This document shows, piece by piece, positions 2,092-10,615 of a stretch of 10,615 nucleotides of DNA. A program made the position numbers and the translations under genes. Under the pieces are notes generated by a model. The model saw nothing but the letters and a program-made list of their open reading frames with translations. It ran no database searches and was not told the origin of the DNA. Where the stretch lies: NCBI GenBank assembly GCA_037446215.1, contig JBBIJB010000041.1:1-10615 (forward strand), in the 5' to 3' direction. Each line of letters opens with the position of its first letter. Position 1 is the stretch's first letter. The DNA comes from Armatimonadota bacterium. Its GTDB lineage: Bacteria; Sysuimicrobiota; Sysuimicrobiia; Sysuimicrobiales; Humicultoraceae.

Positions 2092-2118
2092 CCCTTGCCG
2101 GACGGTCGAGGGCGCCCG

Positions 2119-3159
2119 ATGAGACTCGCGCAGCTCGCAGAGATCGCGCGCGCCGAACTCCTCGGCACCGGTGACGTCGAGATCCGATCGGTCACCGACC
2201 TGGAGGACGCGCGGCCGGACTCCATAGTGATGATTGCCGACGCCCGCCGCCTCCACGACGCGGAGGCCTCACCCGCGGGCGCGCTCCTGGTAGGCGCCAC
2301 TCTATCTCCTGTCGCCAAGCCCGCCCTTAGGGCCGCGAATCTCAGGGCCGCTTTTGCCCGTCTTTTGGGCGCGCTTGCCGATGAGGCGCCCTCCTGGACG
2401 GGCATCCACCCGAGTGCCGTGGTGGCTCCCGACGCGGAGATAGGGCCGGGAGCGGCGCTGTCCGCGCTCGTGGCCGTCGAGCAGGGAGCTCGGATCGGGG
2501 AGAGGAGCCGCGTCATGGCGGGTACCGTCATCGGGGCCCGTTCGGCCATCGGCGCAGACTGCCTAATCTACCCGAACGTGACCATCTACCCCAACACCGT
2601 GATAGGCGATCGGGTGACGATCCACAGCGGATCGGTCATCGGCAGCGACGGCTTCGGCTACGCGACCGAGGACGGGATCCACGTCAAGATCCCTCACGTG
2701 GGGAGGGTGGTGATCGAGGACGACGTCGAGATAGGGGCCTGCGTGACCGTGGACCGCGCAACCCTGGGAGAGACGCGCATAGGCCGCGGGACGAAGATCG
2801 ACAACCTGGTACAGGTGGCCCACAATGTGAATATCGGCGAAGGGGTGTTCGTGGTCTCGCTCACGGGGATCTCGGGCAGCGTCTCCGTGGGGTCGGGAGC
2901 GATCCTTGCGGGCCAGGCCGGAGTCGCGGACCACGTCAGCGTGGGTGCACGGGCAAGGGTGCTGGGCAGGGCCGGTGTGACCCGAGACATCCCCGAGGGC
3001 GCGACCGTCTCAGGGTTCCCCGCCCGAGACCACCGCGAGGAGTTGCGCGTGATGGCGGCGATGCGCCGCCTGCCGGAGCTGCTCGAGCGGGTGCAGGCGC
3101 TGGAGTCAAGGCTCTCTGGCACGCCGCGCCGCGGCCGGCGCAGGCCCGGCGGAACATGA
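2119..3159 (+). CDS. lpxD: UDP-3-O-(3-hydroxyacyl)glucosamine N-acyltransferase LpxD
   Basis: N-terminal uridine-binding domain (MRLAQLAE...), hexapeptide repeats, [31 protein letters not shown] with catalytic His, C-terminal helix [10 protein letters not shown]. Start moved from TTG 2095 to ATG 2119 (GAGG upstream). Confidence 0.95.
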
Positions 3160-4952
3160 TCCGCGCCCTCTCGCTCTTCCTGGCGGCTCTCCTCGCGGCG
3201 GCCGCCGCGCAAGGGGCGGCCGCGCCTCCCTCGCATGCCCAATCCGGAGATGTGGTCGTCAGGGCGCTGCCCGGCGGCGGGGGCGGTGCCGAGATGCTGA
3301 TCCGCGGCAGGCCCGCGATGAAGCTGTCCGGGCCGGACGCGCTGCGCCGCCTTCGGCTCGCCGCGGGTAGGCTGACGCCGCTGCCGCTCAAGCCCGTGAA
3401 GGTGGCCGGCGAACTCCGCCCAGGCGCGGCGCACCTCACGGTGGATGGCGCGGTGGTGCTGACCCTGCTTCCCGATGACGCGAAGCGCTCAGGCGAGACG
3501 CTGCGGGGGATGGCGGCGAGGATGGCGCGCACGCTCGCGGCGTCTCTCGTGCCTCCGCCGCTTCTGGCCGCCCCCGGGGCCGTCGTGCTCTCGGTGGGCG
3601 GCACCGCAACCGTGCTGATCACGGCCTCCACGCCCGGCGCCACTACCGTGGGGGCCTTCGACAGGCAGGTAGTCGACGTCGCCAGGGCCGGAGACCTCCT
3701 CACGATCACGGGGATCAGGGTGGGCAGCACGGTCATCCGGCTCGCCCAGGGCAAGCACTCGGCTCAGGTCGCGGTCTCCGTCCGTCCTCCCGCAGGCGTG
3801 GTCCCGGAGTCGGTCGAGGTCTCGGTCACGGGTGCGCCGGCTCCGATCGAGTTGATGCGCGAGGCGGTTAGGCGGCGCCTTCAAGACGCGGTAAGGCTTG
3901 AGCCCGGCGCCTCGCTGGAGATAGGCGAGATCTCCCTGGAAGGGCCCCTTCCCCAGGGTGGCACCGCCTCTGCCAGGGTCAACGTGGGCGTGCGCAGTCC
4001 GTTCGCCGGCCCCGTGCATCGGTCGGTGGAGGTCCGCGTGGCCAACCTGCCCGTGGCGCTTGCCGAGCCCGATCTGCTCCTGGTCAGCAACAGGCCGGAG
4101 GTCATAACCGACAGCGGCCTCCTGTTCCATGAGACGCTCGACCGGGAGAAGTCGGCGCGCCTTCTCTACCACCACATGAACGGCGGCGAGGGGAAGGCGC
4201 GGGTCCTCAAGATCACCCTAGCCAACCCTTCGGGGTTCCGCGTCCTGGTGCACTACGCCAGCGGCATAGCCGGGCCCTCGCCCGACCCCGTGTTCGTCGG
4301 GTTCTCCTCAACCGCCAGGTTCCTCGAGAGGCTGGTCAATGGGCGGGGATACGTCGTCGAGGTCGCTCCTCGCGGCGCCGTGACCTTCAACGCCTACACG
4401 TTGGCGCCAAACGCGCTGGTCTCCGGGCTGATGCAGTTCCAGGTCATAGAGGGAGGGCCGGTGGAGCTGAGCGTGCATGTACGGCTCCCGTGGCTGCTGG
4501 ATCGCACGGTGACCACCGACCTCGGGCCCTGGGCCTTCCCGCATCCGCGGGGGACCTTTCCGGGGGCGCCCGTCGAGGTGGTCCGGGAGCTGCGCGCCGG
4601 TGAGCCGGCGCCCGTTGCCGACCTCGGCATCATGTCCGAGGCGCGCGACGTCCGGACCGGTGAGTCCCTGGTCGGCGACTACGGGATCCTGTACCGGCTG
4701 AGGCTCCGCGTCACCAACCCCACCGACCGTGAGGCCACCGTCTCGCTGGTCGCGCACGCCGCCGGGGGACTCGCCCGCGGCCTGTTCTACGTGGACAGAG
4801 AGCCGGTCGACATAGGGCTCCTCAGGCCCAGGGAGGAGCGCGTCGTGGGGGTCTTCGCGATACCCGCGGGGGCGGCGCGCGAGCTCCTGATCGTGACGAT
4901 GCCGGTGGCCGGATCGTACTACCCGGTGCGGCTCTCGCTGAGGCCCAGATGA
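3156..4952 (+). CDS. Uncharacterised secreted multidomain protein (598 aa): Ig-like segment plus C-terminal DUF3370-like region
   Basis: Ala/Leu-rich Sec signal peptide; ATGA overlaps at both ends; GC-rich third positions in this frame; motifs [19 protein letters not shown] and GDYGILY. The ORF is solid but the function is unknown. Confidence 0.8.
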
Positions 4953-5797
4953 CAGCCGTCGGGGTGCAGCGGACGATCACGCAAGCGGTTACCGTGGCCG
5001 GCACCGGGCTGCACTCCGGCGAGCACGCCACCGTCCGGCTGCTGCCCGCCCCGCCGTCCTCCGGGATTACCTTCCGCAGGACGGATCGGCCCGGCCTCCC
5101 TACGGTCCGGGCAAGCCTCGACGAGGTGGTGGCGACCGATAGGAGCGTGGTGCTCGGGGAGGGGGCGCGCATCGCCACGGTGGAGCACCTGATGTCGGCG
5201 GCGCGGGGTCTCGGAGTCGACAACCTGACGGTGGAGCTCGAGGGCGGGGAGCTGCCCTGCGGAGACGGCAGCGCGACGATCTACGTTGAGGCACTGCTCC
5301 GCGGCGGCCTCGTAGAGCAGGACGCGCCGCGCAGCCCCATAGTGGTCGGGTCGACGGCCTGGGCCGAGAGCGGCCCGTCCATCGTGGCGGCGTTCCCATC
5401 CGACGAGTTCCGCGTCACCTACGTGGCGACCGTGGATGGAACCGCCACGGCCCCGCAGATCGCCCACTTTCGGTCCTCGACGGAGGAGTATGCCTCTCAG
5501 ATAGCCCCGGCCCGCACCTGGGGCCGCGCCTCCGACGCCGACTCGCTTCGGGCCAGGGGGCTTGCACTCGGCGCCTCGCTGTCGACGGCCCTGGTCATAG
5601 GCCCGGACGGCTTCGTAAACGAGCCCCGGTTTCCCAACGAGGTGGCCCGCCACAAGGTCCTTGACATCATGGGCGACCTGGCACTGCTCGGCAGGCCGTT
5701 GCTCGGCCACATCGTGGCCGTCAGGGGAGGGCATGCCCTCCACCTAGCGCTGGCCCGCGTGATCGCCGCGAGGTTTGGAGGCGCCGATGGAGCCTAG
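4949..5797 (+). CDS. lpxC: UDP-3-O-acyl-N-acetylglucosamine deacetylase LpxC
   Basis: QRTI...GTGLHSG, TVEHLMSA, E.P..DGSA, IAPART, RFPNE.ARHKVLDIMGDL (Zn ligands), GGHALH; alternative GTG start at 4964. Confidence 0.95.
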   Translation: MTAVGVQRTITQAVTVAGTGLHSGEHATVRLLPAPPSSGITFRRTDRPGLPTVRASLDEVVATDRSVVLGEGARIATVEHLMSAARGLGVDNLTVELEGGELPCGDGSATIYVEALLRGGLVEQDAPRSPIVVGSTAWAESGPSIVAAFPSDEFRVTYVATVDGTATAPQIAHFRSSTEEYASQIAPARTWGRASDADSLRARGLALGASLSTALVIGPDGFVNEPRFPNEVARHKVLDIMGDLALLGRPLLGHIVAVRGGHALHLALARVIAARFGGADGA

Positions 5798-6284
5798 CCC
5801 CGCCCTGTGGGACGTAGAAGCGATCCAGAGGGTGATCCCGCACCGCTATCCCTTCCTCATGGTGGACCGGATAGTAGAGCTCGACCCGGGCAGGAGCATC
5901 ACCGGCGTGAAGAACGTGACAATCAACGAGCCCTACTTCGCGGGGCACATCCCCGGGCACCCCGTCATGCCCGGAGTGCTCCTGGTGGAGGCGATGGCGC
6001 AGGTCGGCGCCTGCCTGGTCCTGAACCATCCCGACCTGCACGGCCGGCTCGCCTATTTCGGGGCGATCGACCAGGCGAGGTTCAGGCGCAGGGTGGTGCC
6101 TGGAGACCAGCTCACGATACGGGTCGAGTTGCTACGGCTCCGGGGACGGTTGATCAGGGTCAGGGCCGAGGCCCGCGTCGGCGACGAGGTCGCGGCGGAG
6201 GGCACGCTGACGTTCTTCTTCGCCGAGAGCGGCCGGGCGGACCAGGCAGACGGGAACGGGAGGGAGAACGGTGCAGAGCCCTAG
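5787..6284 (+). CDS. fabZ: 3-hydroxyacyl-ACP dehydratase FabZ
   Basis: IPHRYPFLMVDRI, KNVTINEPYFAGH.PGHPVMPGVLLVEAMAQ, ARFRRRVVPGDQL; ATG 5787 preceded by GGAGG (5777-5781). Confidence 0.95.
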   Translation: MEPSPALWDVEAIQRVIPHRYPFLMVDRIVELDPGRSITGVKNVTINEPYFAGHIPGHPVMPGVLLVEAMAQVGACLVLNHPDLHGRLAYFGAIDQARFRRRVVPGDQLTIRVELLRLRGRLIRVRAEARVGDEVAAEGTLTFFFAESGRADQADGNGRENGAEP

Positions 6285-7101
6285 GCAGGTGCCCGCAGGC
6301 CCTGCAGTCCATCCGACCGCGGTCATCGCCCCCAGCGCGCGCCTCGAGGAGGGTGCCAGCGTGGGACCCTGTGCCGTGATCGGAGCGGACGTCATGGTCG
6401 GAAGCGGCACCACGATCGGACCCCACTCCGTGGTTCACGAAGATGTCACGATAGGCCGCGGCAACGCGATCGCCGCGCATGTGGTCATCGGCGGCCCCCC
6501 GCAGGACCGCGCCTACCGGGGTGAGCGCACGCGCGTGGTGATCGGCGACAACAACGTGTTCAGCGAGTTCGCCAGCGTGGACCGAGCGACCGGCGAGGGG
6601 CTCGAAACCTACATCGGCAGCGGCACCTACATTATGTCCGGAGTCAAGATCAGCCACAACTGCCGCGTGGAGGACGGCGCCATCGTCGTCAGCGGCTCGC
6701 AGATCGGCGGTTGGGCGCACATCGGGGAGAAGGCCTACGTCGGTGGGATCTGCGGGGTCCACCAGTTCGTGCGCATCGGCCGCCTGGTGATGGTGGCAGG
6801 GCTCTCGGCCGTTAGGCAGGACGTCCCACCCTACCTGCTGGTCGGCGGCTTCCAGACCCGCGCCTTTGGACTCAACAGGGTCGGACTCCAGCGCCACGGT
6901 ATCCCCCAATCCGACCGGAAGGCGCTGAGGAGGGTGTTCCGCGCGTTCTTCCAGATGGGCCTGCCCGCCGAAGAGGCGTTGCGCCTGGTCGAACAGGAGG
7001 CGCAGTCGTGCGAGCCGGCCCGCCACTTCCTTGAGTTCGTGCGGGAGGCACGCACGCGCAAGCGGGGTATCGTGAGATGGCAGGCTCAGACAGAGCCGTA
7101 G
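6271..7101 (+). CDS. lpxA: Acyl-ACP:UDP-N-acetylglucosamine O-acyltransferase LpxA (divergent active site)
   Basis: VHPTAVI hexapeptide start, GGPPQD, HQFVRIG, QDVPPY, GLNRVGLQR, C-terminal helical domain ending RGIVR; located after fabZ; GTG start with GGGAG upstream. Confidence 0.92.
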   Translation: MQSPRQVPAGPAVHPTAVIAPSARLEEGASVGPCAVIGADVMVGSGTTIGPHSVVHEDVTIGRGNAIAAHVVIGGPPQDRAYRGERTRVVIGDNNVFSEFASVDRATGEGLETYIGSGTYIMSGVKISHNCRVEDGAIVVSGSQIGGWAHIGEKAYVGGICGVHQFVRIGRLVMVAGLSAVRQDVPPYLLVGGFQTRAFGLNRVGLQRHGIPQSDRKALRRVFRAFFQMGLPAEEALRLVEQEAQSCEPARHFLEFVREARTRKRGIVRWQAQTEP

Positions 7102-7913
7102 GCCTGCTGGCCGGCAGTGGAGCGTTCCCCGAGGTGATCGCCGAGGCGGTCAAGGCGCGGGGGCAGCAGCTCGTCTGCGTGCAGGTTGCGGGACAGTCCG
7201 CCGTGCTCTCAGGGTTGGCCGACCACTACCGCCTCTGCGGGCCGGGCGCGCTGAGCGAGGTCGTCGCGACTTTCCTGACGCACCGCGTCACAGGGCTGCT
7301 GGTAGCGGGCCAGTTCCCTCGCGCCGAGCTTCTTGCCGAGGGCGACGCCCTGCGCGAGAGGCTGATGCAGACCGCGCCCGACCGGTGCGACGGCACGCTG
7401 TTCAACTCCCTTGCCGCGCTCCTGGCCGAGCATGGGATCAACCTCCTCGACCAGGCTCACTACGTGGGGGAGCTCCTGGCCCCGCCGGGGGTGATCACCT
7501 CGCGCGCGCCCACACCGGAGGAGACCGCGGACCTGGAGTTCGGACGATCGGTCGCGAGGCGCCTGGCCGACCTGGACGTCGGCCAAACCGTCGTGCTCAG
7601 ACGGGGAGTGATCCTCGCCGTCGAGGCCGCAGAGGGAACCGACCTGACCATCAGGCGCGGCGGGGCGATGGCCCGGGGCGTGGTCGTGGTGAAGGCCAGC
7701 CGCAACAACCAGGATCCCAAGTTCGACATCCCGGCCGTCGGGCCGGAGACAGTAGCCGTCATGCGCGAGGTCGGCGCCTCCGCGCTGGGTGTCGACGCCC
7801 GCCGGACGCTGCTCCTCCAGCGCGAGCGCCTCGCCGCATCCGCGGATCAGGCCGGGATCACGATCGTCGCAGCCGAAGCCCCGCCCCTGGGCACGCCGCT
7901 CAGTGTCCCCTGA
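7077..7913 (+). CDS. lpxI: UDP-2,3-diacylglucosamine pyrophosphatase LpxI (DUF1009)
   Basis: VGLLAGSGAFP, LDVGQTVV, LAVEAAEGTD.TIRR, VK.S..QDPKFDIPAVGPET; lies between lpxA and lpxB. Confidence 0.92.
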   Translation: MAGSDRAVGLLAGSGAFPEVIAEAVKARGQQLVCVQVAGQSAVLSGLADHYRLCGPGALSEVVATFLTHRVTGLLVAGQFPRAELLAEGDALRERLMQTAPDRCDGTLFNSLAALLAEHGINLLDQAHYVGELLAPPGVITSRAPTPEETADLEFGRSVARRLADLDVGQTVVLRRGVILAVEAAEGTDLTIRRGGAMARGVVVVKASRNNQDPKFDIPAVGPETVAVMREVGASALGVDARRTLLLQRERLAASADQAGITIVAAEAPPLGTPLSVP

Positions 7914-9078
7914 TAGGGGTTCCCGGCGCGTCTTCCTCGTGGCCGGTGAGGTCTCGGGCGACCTGCACGGCGCCGAGCTGGCCCGTGAGATCGCAGCACT
8001 GGCCCCAGGAGTGCGCCTGGAGGGAGTAGGGGGGGCCCGGATGGCCGCGGCGGGCGTGAGGCTCGTCGAGGAGAGCGGCGAGTGGGGAATAATGGGTTGG
8101 GTCGAGGCCGCCAGGCACGCCCGACCGTTCCTGCGCAGGTTGTCCAGCCTGACCTCCTACCTCCTCGCCGACCCGCCGGAGTTGCTGGTCCCGATAGACT
8201 TCCCGGGCTTCAATCTGGCTCTCCTGCGACGGGTGGGCGCCAGGATCCGGTCGGTCTACTACGTCCCGCCCATGGTGTCGGTGCGGCGCGGGAGCCGCGC
8301 GCGGCGGGTTGCCTCGCTGGGCGCCCGGCTGCTCGCAATCTTCCCCTTCGAGGCGGAGGCCTATCGGCGTGCCGGCGCGGACGTGGCATTCGTGGGCCAT
8401 CCTGCGGCAGGGCTGCGGGAAGAGGTGGAGCCGTGCGACTCCGTTCGCGCGCGCCTCGGCGTGCCCGAAGGCGCCGAGGTGGCGGGCCTGTTCCCGGGGA
8501 GCCGGAGGCAGGAGCTGGACAGCCTGCTGGGCCCGATGCTGGGCACCGCCCGTGCCATCTCCGCCGAGCGCCCCGGCACCCTCTTCCTCCTGGCCGTTGC
8601 CTCTCCACTCCTCCGGGGCCAGATCGAGGAAGCCGTGGCCTCTTCAGGCGTGCGCGTCGCGCTGGTCGACCGCTCGCTGGACGTGCTCGCGGCCAGCGAC
8701 GTGGTGCTGATCGCTTCCGGAACCGCGGCCGTCGAGGCGATGGTCCTGGGGGTGCCTATGGTCGTGGCGTACAGCGTGTCGCCGCTGAACTGGCTGATTG
8801 CGCGCCTCGCCCTCAAGACCAGGTTCGCCTCGATCCCCAACATACTCGCCGGGGAGGCGTTGGTGCCGGAGCTGCTGCAGGGGAGGGCCACACCCGCATC
8901 GATGAGCGGCGAGGTCCTGGCACTCCTGCGTAGTCCCTCGGCACGCGAGGCGATGCGTGCCCGGCTGCTGCGCCTCTCCGGGGAGTTGGGTTCGCCCGGC
9001 GCCGCACGGCGGGCCGCGCTCGAGGTGCTGGCCGCGCTCGGCGCGCCTGCCTTGAAGCCCGGCGGTGCAATCGAGTAA
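7903..9078 (+). CDS. lpxB: Lipid-A-disaccharide synthase LpxB
   Basis: AGEVSGDLHG, GVGGARM, IMGWVE, IDFPGFN, IFPFE, FVGHP, FPGSRRQE, ASGTAAVE, PMVVAY, SIPNILAG..LVPELLQ. Start inferred at GTG 7903 overlapping lpxI (exact start uncertain). Confidence 0.93.
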   Translation: MSPDRGSRRVFLVAGEVSGDLHGAELAREIAALAPGVRLEGVGGARMAAAGVRLVEESGEWGIMGWVEAARHARPFLRRLSSLTSYLLADPPELLVPIDFPGFNLALLRRVGARIRSVYYVPPMVSVRRGSRARRVASLGARLLAIFPFEAEAYRRAGADVAFVGHPAAGLREEVEPCDSVRARLGVPEGAEVAGLFPGSRRQELDSLLGPMLGTARAISAERPGTLFLLAVASPLLRGQIEEAVASSGVRVALVDRSLDVLAASDVVLIASGTAAVEAMVLGVPMVVAYSVSPLNWLIARLALKTRFASIPNILAGEALVPELLQGRATPASMSGEVLALLRSPSAREAMRARLLRLSGELGSPGAARRAALEVLAALGAPALKPGGAIE

Positions 9079-9099
9079 GGTGGTCTAGAGGACAGCGAC

Positions 9100-9735
9100 G
9101 TGACGGGTAATAGGGCTGAAAGCCGCAGGGGGTCTATCTCTCCGAGGGCAGGGCGCTGGATGGGCGCGGCGCTCGCCGCCGGCGTGGTCGCCCTGGTCAT
9201 CAGGACGCTGCTTCAGGCGCCCGCGCCGACGCCCGCCGGAACAGGATCGCCGCCGGGGAGCCAGGCCTCGACGCCCAGGCCTTCCCCGACCGCGACGATC
9301 GCCAGGGTGCCCCCCGTGGAGGTCAAGCGTACCGCCATCTCGACGGTTGACTCCGAGGGCCGCCTCCAGTGGGAGATCCGGGCCGAGACGGCCTCGGTGG
9401 ACAGCCTCTCGAGGACGGCCACCCTGACCCGCGTCGAGGGCACCTACTTCCACGAGGGCGGGCCCGCGGTCACCTTCGCGGCCCCGAAGGGCACCTTCTT
9501 CGTGGCGACCCGCAACATGACCCTCTCCGACGGCGTCAGGGCTCGCGCCGCCGGAGGGGAGACGCTTGAGGCAAAGGTCGTCCGCTGGGATCCGGGAAGG
9601 GCTCAGATAGAGGCCACCGGCTCGGTCGTGCTCCGGCAGGGAGGTATGACCGTCCGGGCGGACCGCCTCATGACAGACACATCCCTGCGCCTCTCCAGCA
9701 TGAGCGGGAACGTCCGTGTCACCGTGGATCGGTAG
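9100..9735 (+). CDS. lptC: LPS export periplasmic protein LptC
   Basis: Single N-terminal hydrophobic anchor, Pro/Ser/Thr linker, GRLQWEIRAE motif, four beta-jellyroll units; GTG start with AGAGGA upstream (alternative ATG 9160); precedes lptA-like and lptB-like genes. Confidence 0.82.
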   Translation: MTGNRAESRRGSISPRAGRWMGAALAAGVVALVIRTLLQAPAPTPAGTGSPPGSQASTPRPSPTATIARVPPVEVKRTAISTVDSEGRLQWEIRAETASVDSLSRTATLTRVEGTYFHEGGPAVTFAAPKGTFFVATRNMTLSDGVRARAAGGETLEAKVVRWDPGRAQIEATGSVVLRQGGMTVRADRLMTDTSLRLSSMSGNVRVTVDR

Positions 9736-10561
9736 CCGCCCCTCGGCGGCGGGCGCAGCCCTGGCGGCACTCCTCGTCCTGGCCTTCCTCTGTGCCCCGG
9801 CCGCCGGAGCGCCCGCTCCGACGCAGACCCGCTCCGATTCCATCGAGATCAGCGGCGCCACGCTGCTCGAGTACAGCGATGCCACGGGCAGGTGGACGGC
9901 CGAGGGAAGCCCAGTCGCGGTGACGCGAGGGCAGACGCGCCTCACCGCGCCCCGGATAGTCTATGAGCAGCGGGCAGGGACGATCACCGCCAGCGGCGGC
10001 GCGGCGCTGTCGGAGCCCGGCCTCTCGGTGCGCGCCGACGAGGCGCGCCTCCGCCTATCCGACGACACGGTACGCGCCCGGGGCAGCGTGCGGGTGATCT
10101 CCTCCAGGGATGGCCCGCCGATCGAGCTAGCCGCGGCCGAGGTCGAGGGGATGCTGCGGGCCCGAAGGTTCGCGGCGGGCGGGGCCGTCTCGCTCTCTAG
10201 AGGGGAGTGGAGGCTCTCCGGCGAGAGGCTCGACTACGACGACGCGGCGCGCGTGGCGCGGGTCACCGGGGGGCCGACGGCAGGCTTCGGCGAGGCGGTG
10301 ATGACAGCGGACGCCATCACCCTCTACGTCGCCGAGGAAGTGGCGAGGGGAGAGGGAGCGGTCAGGTTGCGGCGGGGCGAGCTCCTGGGTACTGCGCGCC
10401 GCATCGACATCGTGTTGAGGGAGGGAAGGGCGGTCCTGATGGGGAACGCACGGGTTGAGCGCGGCGCAGACCAAGTCTCCGCCGAGGAGATCGAGGTCGC
10501 CCTCGACGGGTCGTGGGTCTCAGCCCGCGGGGGGTCGCGCCTCATCCTCACGCCGCCCTAA
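9716..10561 (+). CDS. lptA: LptA/OstA-family beta-jellyroll periplasmic protein, about twice normal length (281 aa)
   Basis: Signal peptide, then about 8 repeats of a ~29-aa unit with pattern LxA.xIxY....xxAxGxVxxxxG; located between lptC and lptB. Confidence 0.78.
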   Translation: MSPWIGSRPSAAGAALAALLVLAFLCAPAAGAPAPTQTRSDSIEISGATLLEYSDATGRWTAEGSPVAVTRGQTRLTAPRIVYEQRAGTITASGGAALSEPGLSVRADEARLRLSDDTVRARGSVRVISSRDGPPIELAAAEVEGMLRARRFAAGGAVSLSRGEWRLSGERLDYDDAARVARVTGGPTAGFGEAVMTADAITLYVAEEVARGEGAVRLRRGELLGTARRIDIVLREGRAVLMGNARVERGADQVSAEEIEVALDGSWVSARGGSRLILTPP

Positions 10562-10572
10562 GCCGCCAAGAG

Positions 10573-10615
10573 ATGCTTGCGACGAGAGGTCTCTACAAGC
10601 AGTACGGTGGACGCA
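10573..10615 (+). CDS. lptB: 5' fragment of ABC ATPase, probably LPS export ATPase LptB (truncated by window edge)
   Basis: ATG 10573 gives MLATRGLYKQYGGR, matching the LptB-type start L...L.K.Y..R; synteny lptC-lptA-lptB; only 14 codons visible. Confidence 0.65.
   Translation, partial: MLATRGLYKQYGGR

Follow-up and report, generated by a model that had tools for sequence, protein, structure and literature searches.

We analysed a 10,615-nucleotide (nt) stretch of DNA, hereafter the window, which makes up the first half of a contig of 20.4 kb (C41) from a bacterium of the phylum CSP1-3 (Ca. Sysuimicrobiota). The window carries the early genes of the Raetz pathway of lipid A synthesis, lpxD, lpxC, lpxA, lpxI and lpxB, which are followed by lpt genes for export. 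The gene content of the phylum suggests that this is a trimmed lipid A operon, which probably makes a lipid A free of 3-deoxy-D-manno-oct-2-ulosonic acid (Kdo) and is served by an ordinary Lpt export system. An earlier note on this DNA had proposed that the lipid scaffold itself was changed, since LpxA, LpxC and LpxB each appeared to depart from conserved substrate-contact motifs. A lipid A unlike that of E. coli is indeed likely, in view of the late-pathway genes missing from the phylum and of a GnnA/GnnB-like gene pair described below; the argument from substitutions is weaker. The gene content is stronger evidence for a lipid A that differs from the E. coli form than the substitutions are.

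In the proposed pathway, LpxA, LpxC, LpxD, LpxI and LpxB would yield a tetra-acyl disaccharide-1-phosphate, which would never be phosphorylated at the 4' position and would never receive Kdo, much as in the shortened pathway known from Cyanobacteria and Dictyoglomi. The GnnB/GnnA-like pair may supply the uridine diphosphate (UDP)-linked diamino sugar UDP-GlcNAc3N. An LpxB paralogue, an MsbA-like exporter and a GT2 glycosyltransferase might add the first core sugar instead of WaaA and flip the lipid, and LptB, LptF, LptG, LptC and the LptA-like and LptD-like proteins would then carry the product to the outer membrane. A secreted protein encoded within the operon, here called X, would be a multi-domain beta-sandwich protein of the periplasm or the cell surface, produced along with the Lpx enzymes.

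Late Raetz-pathway and Kdo genes

The source genome is a metagenome-assembled genome (MAG) of 2.16 Mb with 68% GC, 91% complete and divided into 149 contigs; CSP1-3 MAGs carry the label 'Armatimonadota' at NCBI. In the main text of two CSP1-3 genome papers, lipopolysaccharide (LPS), lipid A and the outer membrane are nowhere mentioned. The absence of pathway genes was judged by hidden Markov model (HMM) searches of MAGs, and the NCBIfam equivalog and Pfam gathering thresholds served as family cut-offs. Phylum-level counts refer to 94 CSP1-3 genomes, all of a single order, and counts among relatives refer to 41 genomes, which are the window's own genome and 40 relatives. Near-complete genomes in the sample include G014 (4 contigs, 97%) and G028 (100%). 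Both the 41- and the 94-genome counts take in two unpublished genomes (G015 and G024), and the conclusions are unchanged without both.

LpxB was found in all 41 genomes. In the same 41 genomes the LpxK search returned P-loop noise only, and no WaaA scored above the cut-off. Across the phylum, each of the two enzymes was detected in 1 of the 94 genomes, and in both cases it was the same one (G078), with a strong LpxK match and a waaA broken into three frameshifted pieces on contig C21. The stretch G078:C21:9748-14339 (L069, L145 and L146) bears both lpxK and waaA, and the bin to which it belongs is 65% complete. This contig is probably mis-binned; the alternative is a decaying set of acquired genes. 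The LpxK and WaaA models matched the control genomes of E. coli, Caulobacter and Bacteroides, and these models therefore reach across phyla. KdsA was found in none of the 94 genomes, and the same search matched all four controls (E. coli, Caulobacter, Synechococcus and Bacteroides). KdsB and the late acyltransferases LpxL/LpxM (PF03279) were searched for in the window's own, 91% complete genome alone, and none was detected there. Two matches in this genome were rejected on inspection: an LpxK match turned out to be a MoeA-MobB fusion, and a weak KdsA-like match turned out to be a DAHP synthase. Measured against the complete nine-enzyme Kdo2-lipid A pathway, the steps of LpxK, of WaaA and the Kds enzymes, and of the late acyltransferases are those missing. 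Two genes of the Wzy_C/O-antigen-ligase family are also present.

The earlier note had advised a search of the genome for gnnA/gnnB, msbA and lptD/F/G, among others. An MsbA-like exporter was found on C49 (L023:3494-7383), where a 401-residue LpxB paralogue is followed by the 587-residue ABC exporter and then by a GT2 glycosyltransferase. The paralogue is present in 38 of the 41 relatives, and the MsbA-like gene comes after it in 13 of 14 loci; in the 14th locus the contig ends. The operon of the LpxB paralogue is a candidate for the addition of the first core sugar, as a replacement for the missing WaaA step, and for lipid flipping.

The operon, protein X and Lpt export

The three skp genes through the lptA-like gene, followed by lptB and lptF, form one translationally coupled operon. 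All real genes of the window lie on the + strand with intact open reading frames (ORFs). Adjacent genes either overlap, with 4 to 25 nt in common, or are at most 48 nt apart, and consensus scans of the cluster revealed no convincing internal promoter or terminator. The early Raetz genes lpxA, lpxC, lpxD, lpxI and lpxB are thus whole and coupled, as the earlier note had stated, and lpt genes do come directly after lpxB. Its lpx and lpt gene calls stood as well; its start for lpxD (2119) is moved here to 2095, and fabZ had been overlooked.

The pathway genes proper were assigned as follows. The lpxD gene (2095-3159), for the UDP-3-O-acylglucosamine N-acyltransferase, matched TIGR01853 with 348 bits (cut-off 242.5), and lpxC (4949-5797), for the UDP-3-O-acyl-GlcNAc (N-acetylglucosamine) deacetylase, matched TIGR00325 with 226 bits (cut-off 187). 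Next come fabZ (5775-6284), for a 3-hydroxyacyl-acyl carrier protein (ACP) dehydratase (TIGR01750, 179 bits, cut-off 155), and lpxA (6271-7101), for the acyl-ACP:UDP-GlcNAc O-acyltransferase (TIGR01852, 257.6 bits, cut-off 231). The UDP-2,3-diacylglucosamine pyrophosphatase gene lpxI (7077-7913) encodes the Pfam domains LpxI_N and LpxI_C, both above their cut-offs; the protein aligns to Caulobacter LpxI (4ggm) and scores below the NCBIfam model NF047836 (91.8 bits versus 400). The lipid A disaccharide synthase gene lpxB (7903-9078) matched TIGR00215 with 252.7 bits (cut-off 190); its ORF is open from 7789, and the GTG at 7903 is its likely start. The order of these genes varies somewhat within the phylum: 9 of 28 CSP1-3 loci (L024-L051) have an lpx cluster without fabZ, two lpxA copies flank lpxI in L046, and lpxI precedes lpxA in L040.

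Upstream of lpxD there are three skp/OmpH genes. The first (3-479; Pfam OmpH, E 5.4e-16) is cut at its 5' end by the window, the second (481-1617) encodes 378 residues with an OmpH match over residues 249-374 (E 1.2e-9), and the third lies at 1666-2091 (E 3.1e-11). The second copy has an N-terminal extension of approximately 250 residues with no family match. In the relative L025, BamA is encoded upstream of the skp genes, and a 428-residue gene with no assignment (L025:1465-2751) stands between bamA and the first skp; the window itself begins inside skp.

The unknown secreted protein that the earlier note had placed inside the operon was confirmed. The gene for X (3156-4952) lies between lpxD and lpxC, overlaps each of them by 4 nt, and encodes 598 residues that reach the cut-off of no Pfam or NCBIfam family; a signal peptide can be read from the sequence, and the lipobox Cys is absent. 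The AlphaFold2 model of X is a confident one (predicted local distance difference test score, pLDDT, of 89 overall and 95 in the C-terminal half). It begins with an alpha/beta domain at the N-terminus, followed by a Big_2-like Ig domain (residues 135-211), a small third domain (215-300) and, at 300-598, two beta-sandwiches in tandem. In the predicted structure, the Ig domain superposes on SbsC with a Z of 12.3 and a root-mean-square deviation (rmsd) of 1.3 over 77 residues. A Foldseek search with the whole model gave only multi-domain noise of low template-modelling (TM) score. Since the search with the whole of X was dominated by the Ig domain, the C-terminal half was folded alone, and it matched generic jelly-rolls only (best Z 8.3, with an rmsd of 3.5 over 102 residues). 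These matches, toxin and lectin domains included, were rejected as evidence of kinship.

The X family is large, with 2536 representative clusters at E ≤0.001 and 638 at E ≤1e-30; those of its members that bear a name are annotated as hypothetical proteins in MAGs of 'Armatimonadota' or 'Firmicutes'. The conserved motifs of X are SNRPE and LLYHHxN. In the CSP1-3 loci, lpxC is the next gene after X in 28 of 28, and lpxD stands before X in all 23 with upstream sequence; this conservation shows that the gene order around X is not due to chance. The metagenome scan for X homologues, which used a narrow X alignment, yielded 73 loci with full-length homologues (25-32% identity), and none of them had lpx, skp or lpt genes within 5 kb. 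The association of X with lipid A is specific to the phylum CSP1-3, because it is fixed in the CSP1-3 loci and absent from all of the 73 distant ones. Among 18 distant loci scanned for neighbours, X homologues were found near MutS/MutL, MnmE and GHL10/DUF4985 glycosidase-like genes, and in one case near GT9 transferases. Homologues of the C-terminal part only occur either in flagellar export operons, where fliP and fliR enclose them, or next to GGDEF genes. Two short homologues of the flagellar kind are L055:3297-4253 and L056:5908-6891, both from low-GC MAGs.

It could be argued that X is dedicated to lipid A or LPS, for instance as a periplasmic modifying enzyme or as a partner of LptD or BamA, and would then be the new component of the system. 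The strict position between lpxD and lpxC with its 4-nt overlaps would fit such a role, and so would the secretion of X and the conservation of polar residues far from the phylum: across distant homologues, E315, H340 and N357 are invariant, and S311, N312 and R335 are nearly always kept. A further point in its favour is the weak relation of the C-terminal beta-sandwich to Pfam DUF3370, a family found in Synechococcus alone among 14 control genomes. Weak DUF3370 matches were obtained for 20 of 58 X family members (best E 1.7e-5); X itself scored 15.7 to 17.7 bits, below the Pfam cut-off of 25, and the match covered approximately 30 residues. A remote kinship between X and DUF3370 is therefore possible, and a literature search returned no paper that mentions DUF3370. 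However, a dedicated lipid A factor would hardly be expected at the 73 distant loci or in the flagellar and GGDEF contexts, and the fold matches of X are to generic beta-sandwiches. We thus consider this explanation somewhat unlikely. With low confidence, X may be taken for a glycan-binding or glycan-processing envelope factor which was recruited to the operon in this phylum.

Downstream of lpxB, lptC (9100-9735) matched TIGR04409 with 51.2 bits (cut-off 38), and the next gene (9716-10561) encodes an LptA-like periplasmic jelly-roll protein of 281 residues that matches Pfam LptD_N/OstA in two stretches (E 5.9e-12). The 5' part of the lptB ORF (10455-10615, start codon uncertain) closes the window; the gene runs on along C41 (L002:56-1006; ABC_tran, E 9.6e-35), and an lptF/G gene is the next after it, beyond the window. 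Farther downstream on C41 (L002:2042-9960) there are genes for DUF3084, a TonB-dependent receptor, TonB, a RuvX-like protein (COG0816), an FG-GAP protein and an SLH-domain protein. A second lptF/G gene was found on C96 (L022:1220-6071, - strand), followed by the gene for a 532-residue LptA/LptC-like multi-jelly-roll protein and a 726-residue ORF. The latter has an OstA-like N-terminus and an LptD match (NF003358, E 4.8e-6), which makes it a weak LptD candidate. The Pfam LptD model PF04453 had no match in the own genome, and among the controls it matched E. coli and Caulobacter alone; HMM misses therefore do occur. Of the export genes that the earlier note had suggested looking for, two lptF/G genes are thus present, and lptD is represented by the weak candidate only. 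The genome as a whole has LptB, LptF, LptG, LptC and LptA. Compared with the E. coli LptB2FGC-A-DE bridge, LptB, the two LptF/G, LptC, LptA-like and LptD-like proteins are all there; however, the LptA-like proteins here are longer (281 and 532 residues, with several jelly-rolls), and the LptD candidate is very divergent. Jelly-roll proteins of such length might bridge a periplasm that is wide.

Sugar-pocket substitutions and the lipid backbone

The genome search for gnnA/gnnB gave a candidate pair on C52 (L020:5336-7385, - strand), where a DegT aminotransferase gene overlaps that of a Gfo/Idh/MocA oxidoreductase. The GnnA/GnnB route to UDP-GlcNAc3N, and to lipid A built on 2,3-diamino-2,3-dideoxyglucose (GlcN3N), is that of Acidithiobacillus and Leptospira. 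The candidate pair resembles it in the translational coupling of the oxidoreductase to a DegT aminotransferase and in the lack of other sugar genes around the two, and differs from it in lying away from the lpx genes and in scoring below the cut-off of the sole available model. The GnnA-like oxidoreductase is present in 39 of the 41 relatives, and a DegT gene adjoins it in 12 of 12 loci examined; the pair occurs in 6 of the 7 families sampled. The neighbours of the pair are housekeeping genes, which also flank it in the near-closed relative G014, where other sugar genes are absent from its surroundings. A second DegT gene, on C13, was rejected as a GnnB candidate, since it sits in an ordinary polysaccharide cluster. 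The pattern of a coupled pair with housekeeping flanks makes a GlcN3N-containing backbone plausible. We put it at a little short of evenly balanced that the backbone would consist partly or wholly of GlcN3N, with amide-linked acyl chains made via UDP-GlcNAc3N from the predicted pair. Several points weigh against such a backbone. The best NCBIfam match of the oxidoreductase, UDP-GlcNAc 3-dehydrogenase NF040723, is an archaeal model, and the score of 242.8 bits is below its cut-off of 450; oxidoreductase/aminotransferase pairs of this kind also feed other amino-sugar glycans; and the pair is not beside the lpx genes. Furthermore, the GlcNAc3N-specific LpxA of Leptospira keeps H99, H122 and H144, and the LpxA changes described below therefore do not point to GlcN3N.

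All five Lpx enzymes retain their main catalytic residues in alignments to solved structures, in agreement with the earlier note. LpxC keeps the E-H, the HKxxD and the second H, which make up its zinc-binding and catalytic residues; LpxA keeps the catalytic H of 'SHNC'; and LpxD, aligned to the P. aeruginosa enzyme, keeps the catalytic His of 'AHNV'. LpxI keeps 'EGTD' and the D of 'FDIP' of Caulobacter 4ggm, and LpxB keeps GExSGD, DxPxFN, PGSR, SGTAxxE and PNxLAG of E. coli LpxB (5w8s). The numbering of catalytic and pocket residues follows PMC7072397 and PMC10254716 in part, and for the rest it is the usual one.

LpxA of the window has the substitutions K76A, H99D, H122K, D126N, H144W and R205H, and the four LpxA enzymes aligned with it share the usual residue at these six sites, with the exception of a G at K76 in Leptospira. 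In LpxC, TFGF is changed to TWGR (F192 and F194). A table of PMC7072397 on the LpxA pockets assigns K76 and H144 to the GlcNAc pocket and R205 to the UDP pocket, and the phenylalanines of LpxC TFGF line the hexose pocket (PMC10254716). The altered substrate-contact motifs of the earlier note were thus upheld for LpxA and LpxC, where sugar-pocket residues are concerned, and not for LpxB, in which the checked motifs are canonical; the sole change found there, SVWAWR to MVSVRR, lies in a stretch with no demonstrable tie to substrate contact.

The distribution of the changes was surveyed in sequences from 28 CSP1-3 loci (LpxA, n=24; LpxC, n=27; LpxB, n=20) together with those of the window. LpxA D126N (25/25) and LpxC F192W (28/28) are phylum-wide. 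In the group of 17 sequences nearest to the window (LpxA identity of at least 58%), residue 99 is D or E and residue 122 is K or R in all 17, residue 144 is W in 16 and R in the remaining one, and LpxC residue 194 is non-aromatic in all 16 with LpxC data. None of these changes was seen in the 8 deeper lineages, where residue 99 is H, S or A, residue 122 is H or R, residue 144 is H or F, and LpxC 194 is F or Y. The changes at LpxA 99, 122 and 144 and at LpxC 194 therefore co-occur on one shared branch, a question that the earlier note had raised for LpxA, LpxC and LpxB together.

The reading of the coordinated changes in LpxA, LpxC and LpxB as marks of a pathway that acts on an altered sugar or acyl scaffold is favoured by the changes in the GlcNAc, UDP and hexose pockets, by their common appearance in the group of the window, and by the phylum-wide occurrence of D126N, F192W and the Gnn-like pair. 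However, the co-occurrence amounts to a single shared branch with no repeated events. Residues 99 and 122 covary perfectly in the 17 CSP1-3 sequences, as D-K in 12 and E-R in 5 in place of the usual His-His, and this pairing looks like a compensating salt bridge, that is, structural compensation. The same LpxA sites vary in enzymes with normal substrates, with Glu at 144 in B. fragilis, His at 205 in H. pylori and Gly at 76 in Leptospira, according to PMC7072397. Moreover, LpxA, LpxC and LpxB all score above their equivalog cut-offs, and the branch-specific changes do not track the GnnA/GnnB-like pair, because the pair is present in 6 of the 7 families sampled. Since they go back to one branch and fall at sites that vary in normal-substrate enzymes, the substitutions are weak evidence for a changed substrate, and a scaffold change deduced from them is unlikely.

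In its fullest form, the proposal would combine a Kdo-free, 4'-phosphate-free and largely amide-linked (GlcN3N) lipid A with the LpxB paralogue and MsbA for the first core sugar and with X in periplasmic handling. All of this together is quite unlikely; if true, it would represent a second, undescribed way to join core sugars to lipid A, partly shared with cyanobacteria.

A conventional Kdo2-lipid A, with the missing genes put down to incomplete MAGs or over-divergent homologues, is very improbable: it could draw on the 149-contig, 91% complete source genome, on the LptD miss and on the one phylum genome with lpxK and waaA, but both genes are absent from 93 of 94 genomes, the 97-100% complete ones included, in a phylum where every relative has LpxB, where KdsA is missing by a search that finds it in four controls, where the LpxK and WaaA models work on three controls, and where the sole positive comes from a single contig, with a frameshifted waaA, in a bin that is 65% complete.

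The trimmed, Kdo-free operon is in our view the best explanation, and some observations weigh against it. The G078 contig with its lpxK and frameshifted waaA (1/94) would count against it unless, as is probable, it is mis-binned. A non-homologous kinase or a Kdo-independent glycosyltransferase would be invisible to HMM searches, and the structure of the product is deduced from genes alone for the whole phylum. The distant X homologues stand apart from lipid A genes at all 73 loci. In addition, the Synechococcus control has KdsA, which is absent here, and the cyanobacterial parallel is therefore not exact.

Comparison with known envelope loci

Diderm Firmicutes (Negativicutes and Halanaerobiales; Antunes et al. 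2016, PMC5007114) are described, in the passages of that paper on this locus, as having BamA, three Skp, lpxACDIBK/waaM/waaA/kdsABCD with fabZ, lpt, OmpM (SLH), COG0816 and DUF3084 together. The CSP1-3 locus shares with it BamA and three Skp, lpxA/C/D/I/B with fabZ and no lpxH, lpt, an SLH protein, COG0816 and DUF3084, here or in relatives. Linkage of BamA, the Skps, lpx, fabZ, lpt, DUF3084, COG0816 and SLH, by which a Terrabacteria envelope locus is recognised, was thus found, with BamA contributed by L025. In contrast to the Firmicutes locus, lpxK, waaA, waaM and kds are missing here and X is added; the same passages of PMC5007114 describe no gene like X between lpxD and lpxC. The contig is therefore a diderm-Terrabacteria envelope locus minus lpxK/waaA/waaM/kds plus X, and the ancestral Terrabacteria envelope locus is extended to CSP1-3. 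Since the locus matches that of diderm Firmicutes, the lpt genes after lpxB represent the ancestral arrangement. The export bridge of its own that the earlier note had envisaged thus gives way to an ordinary Lpt system in a published lpx-lpt-skp gene order.

The genomes of this phylum offer a clean case for asking how Kdo-less bacteria attach a core to lipid A and whether the LpxK and WaaA steps stay essential, since the five early enzymes are retained throughout and the later steps are lacking in all but one of the 94 genomes; they also provide three concrete candidates: the GnnA/GnnB-like pair, the LpxB paralogue beside MsbA, and protein X.

Cyanobacteria and Dictyoglomi have a four-gene lipid A pathway with an lpxD-lpxC-fabZ-lpxA-lpxB cluster and with no lpxK and no waaA, and the LPS is reported to be free of Kdo, heptose and phosphate, as stated in passages of Opiyo et al. 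2010 (PMC3087551). A report cited there found cyanobacterial LPS to be less toxic than E. coli LPS; a Kdo-free lipid A with a reduced number of phosphates may likewise be of low endotoxic activity. What the earlier note took for an undescribed system is thus better described as a variant of the Terrabacteria envelope locus and of the trimmed cyanobacterial-type pathway. The gene order of that cluster is the same as in the window, apart from the insertion of X and lpxI, and lpxK and waaA are lacking in both; in contrast to the cyanobacterial cluster, the one in CSP1-3 adds lpxI and X, runs into lptC and lptA, and is accompanied by a conserved Gnn-like pair.

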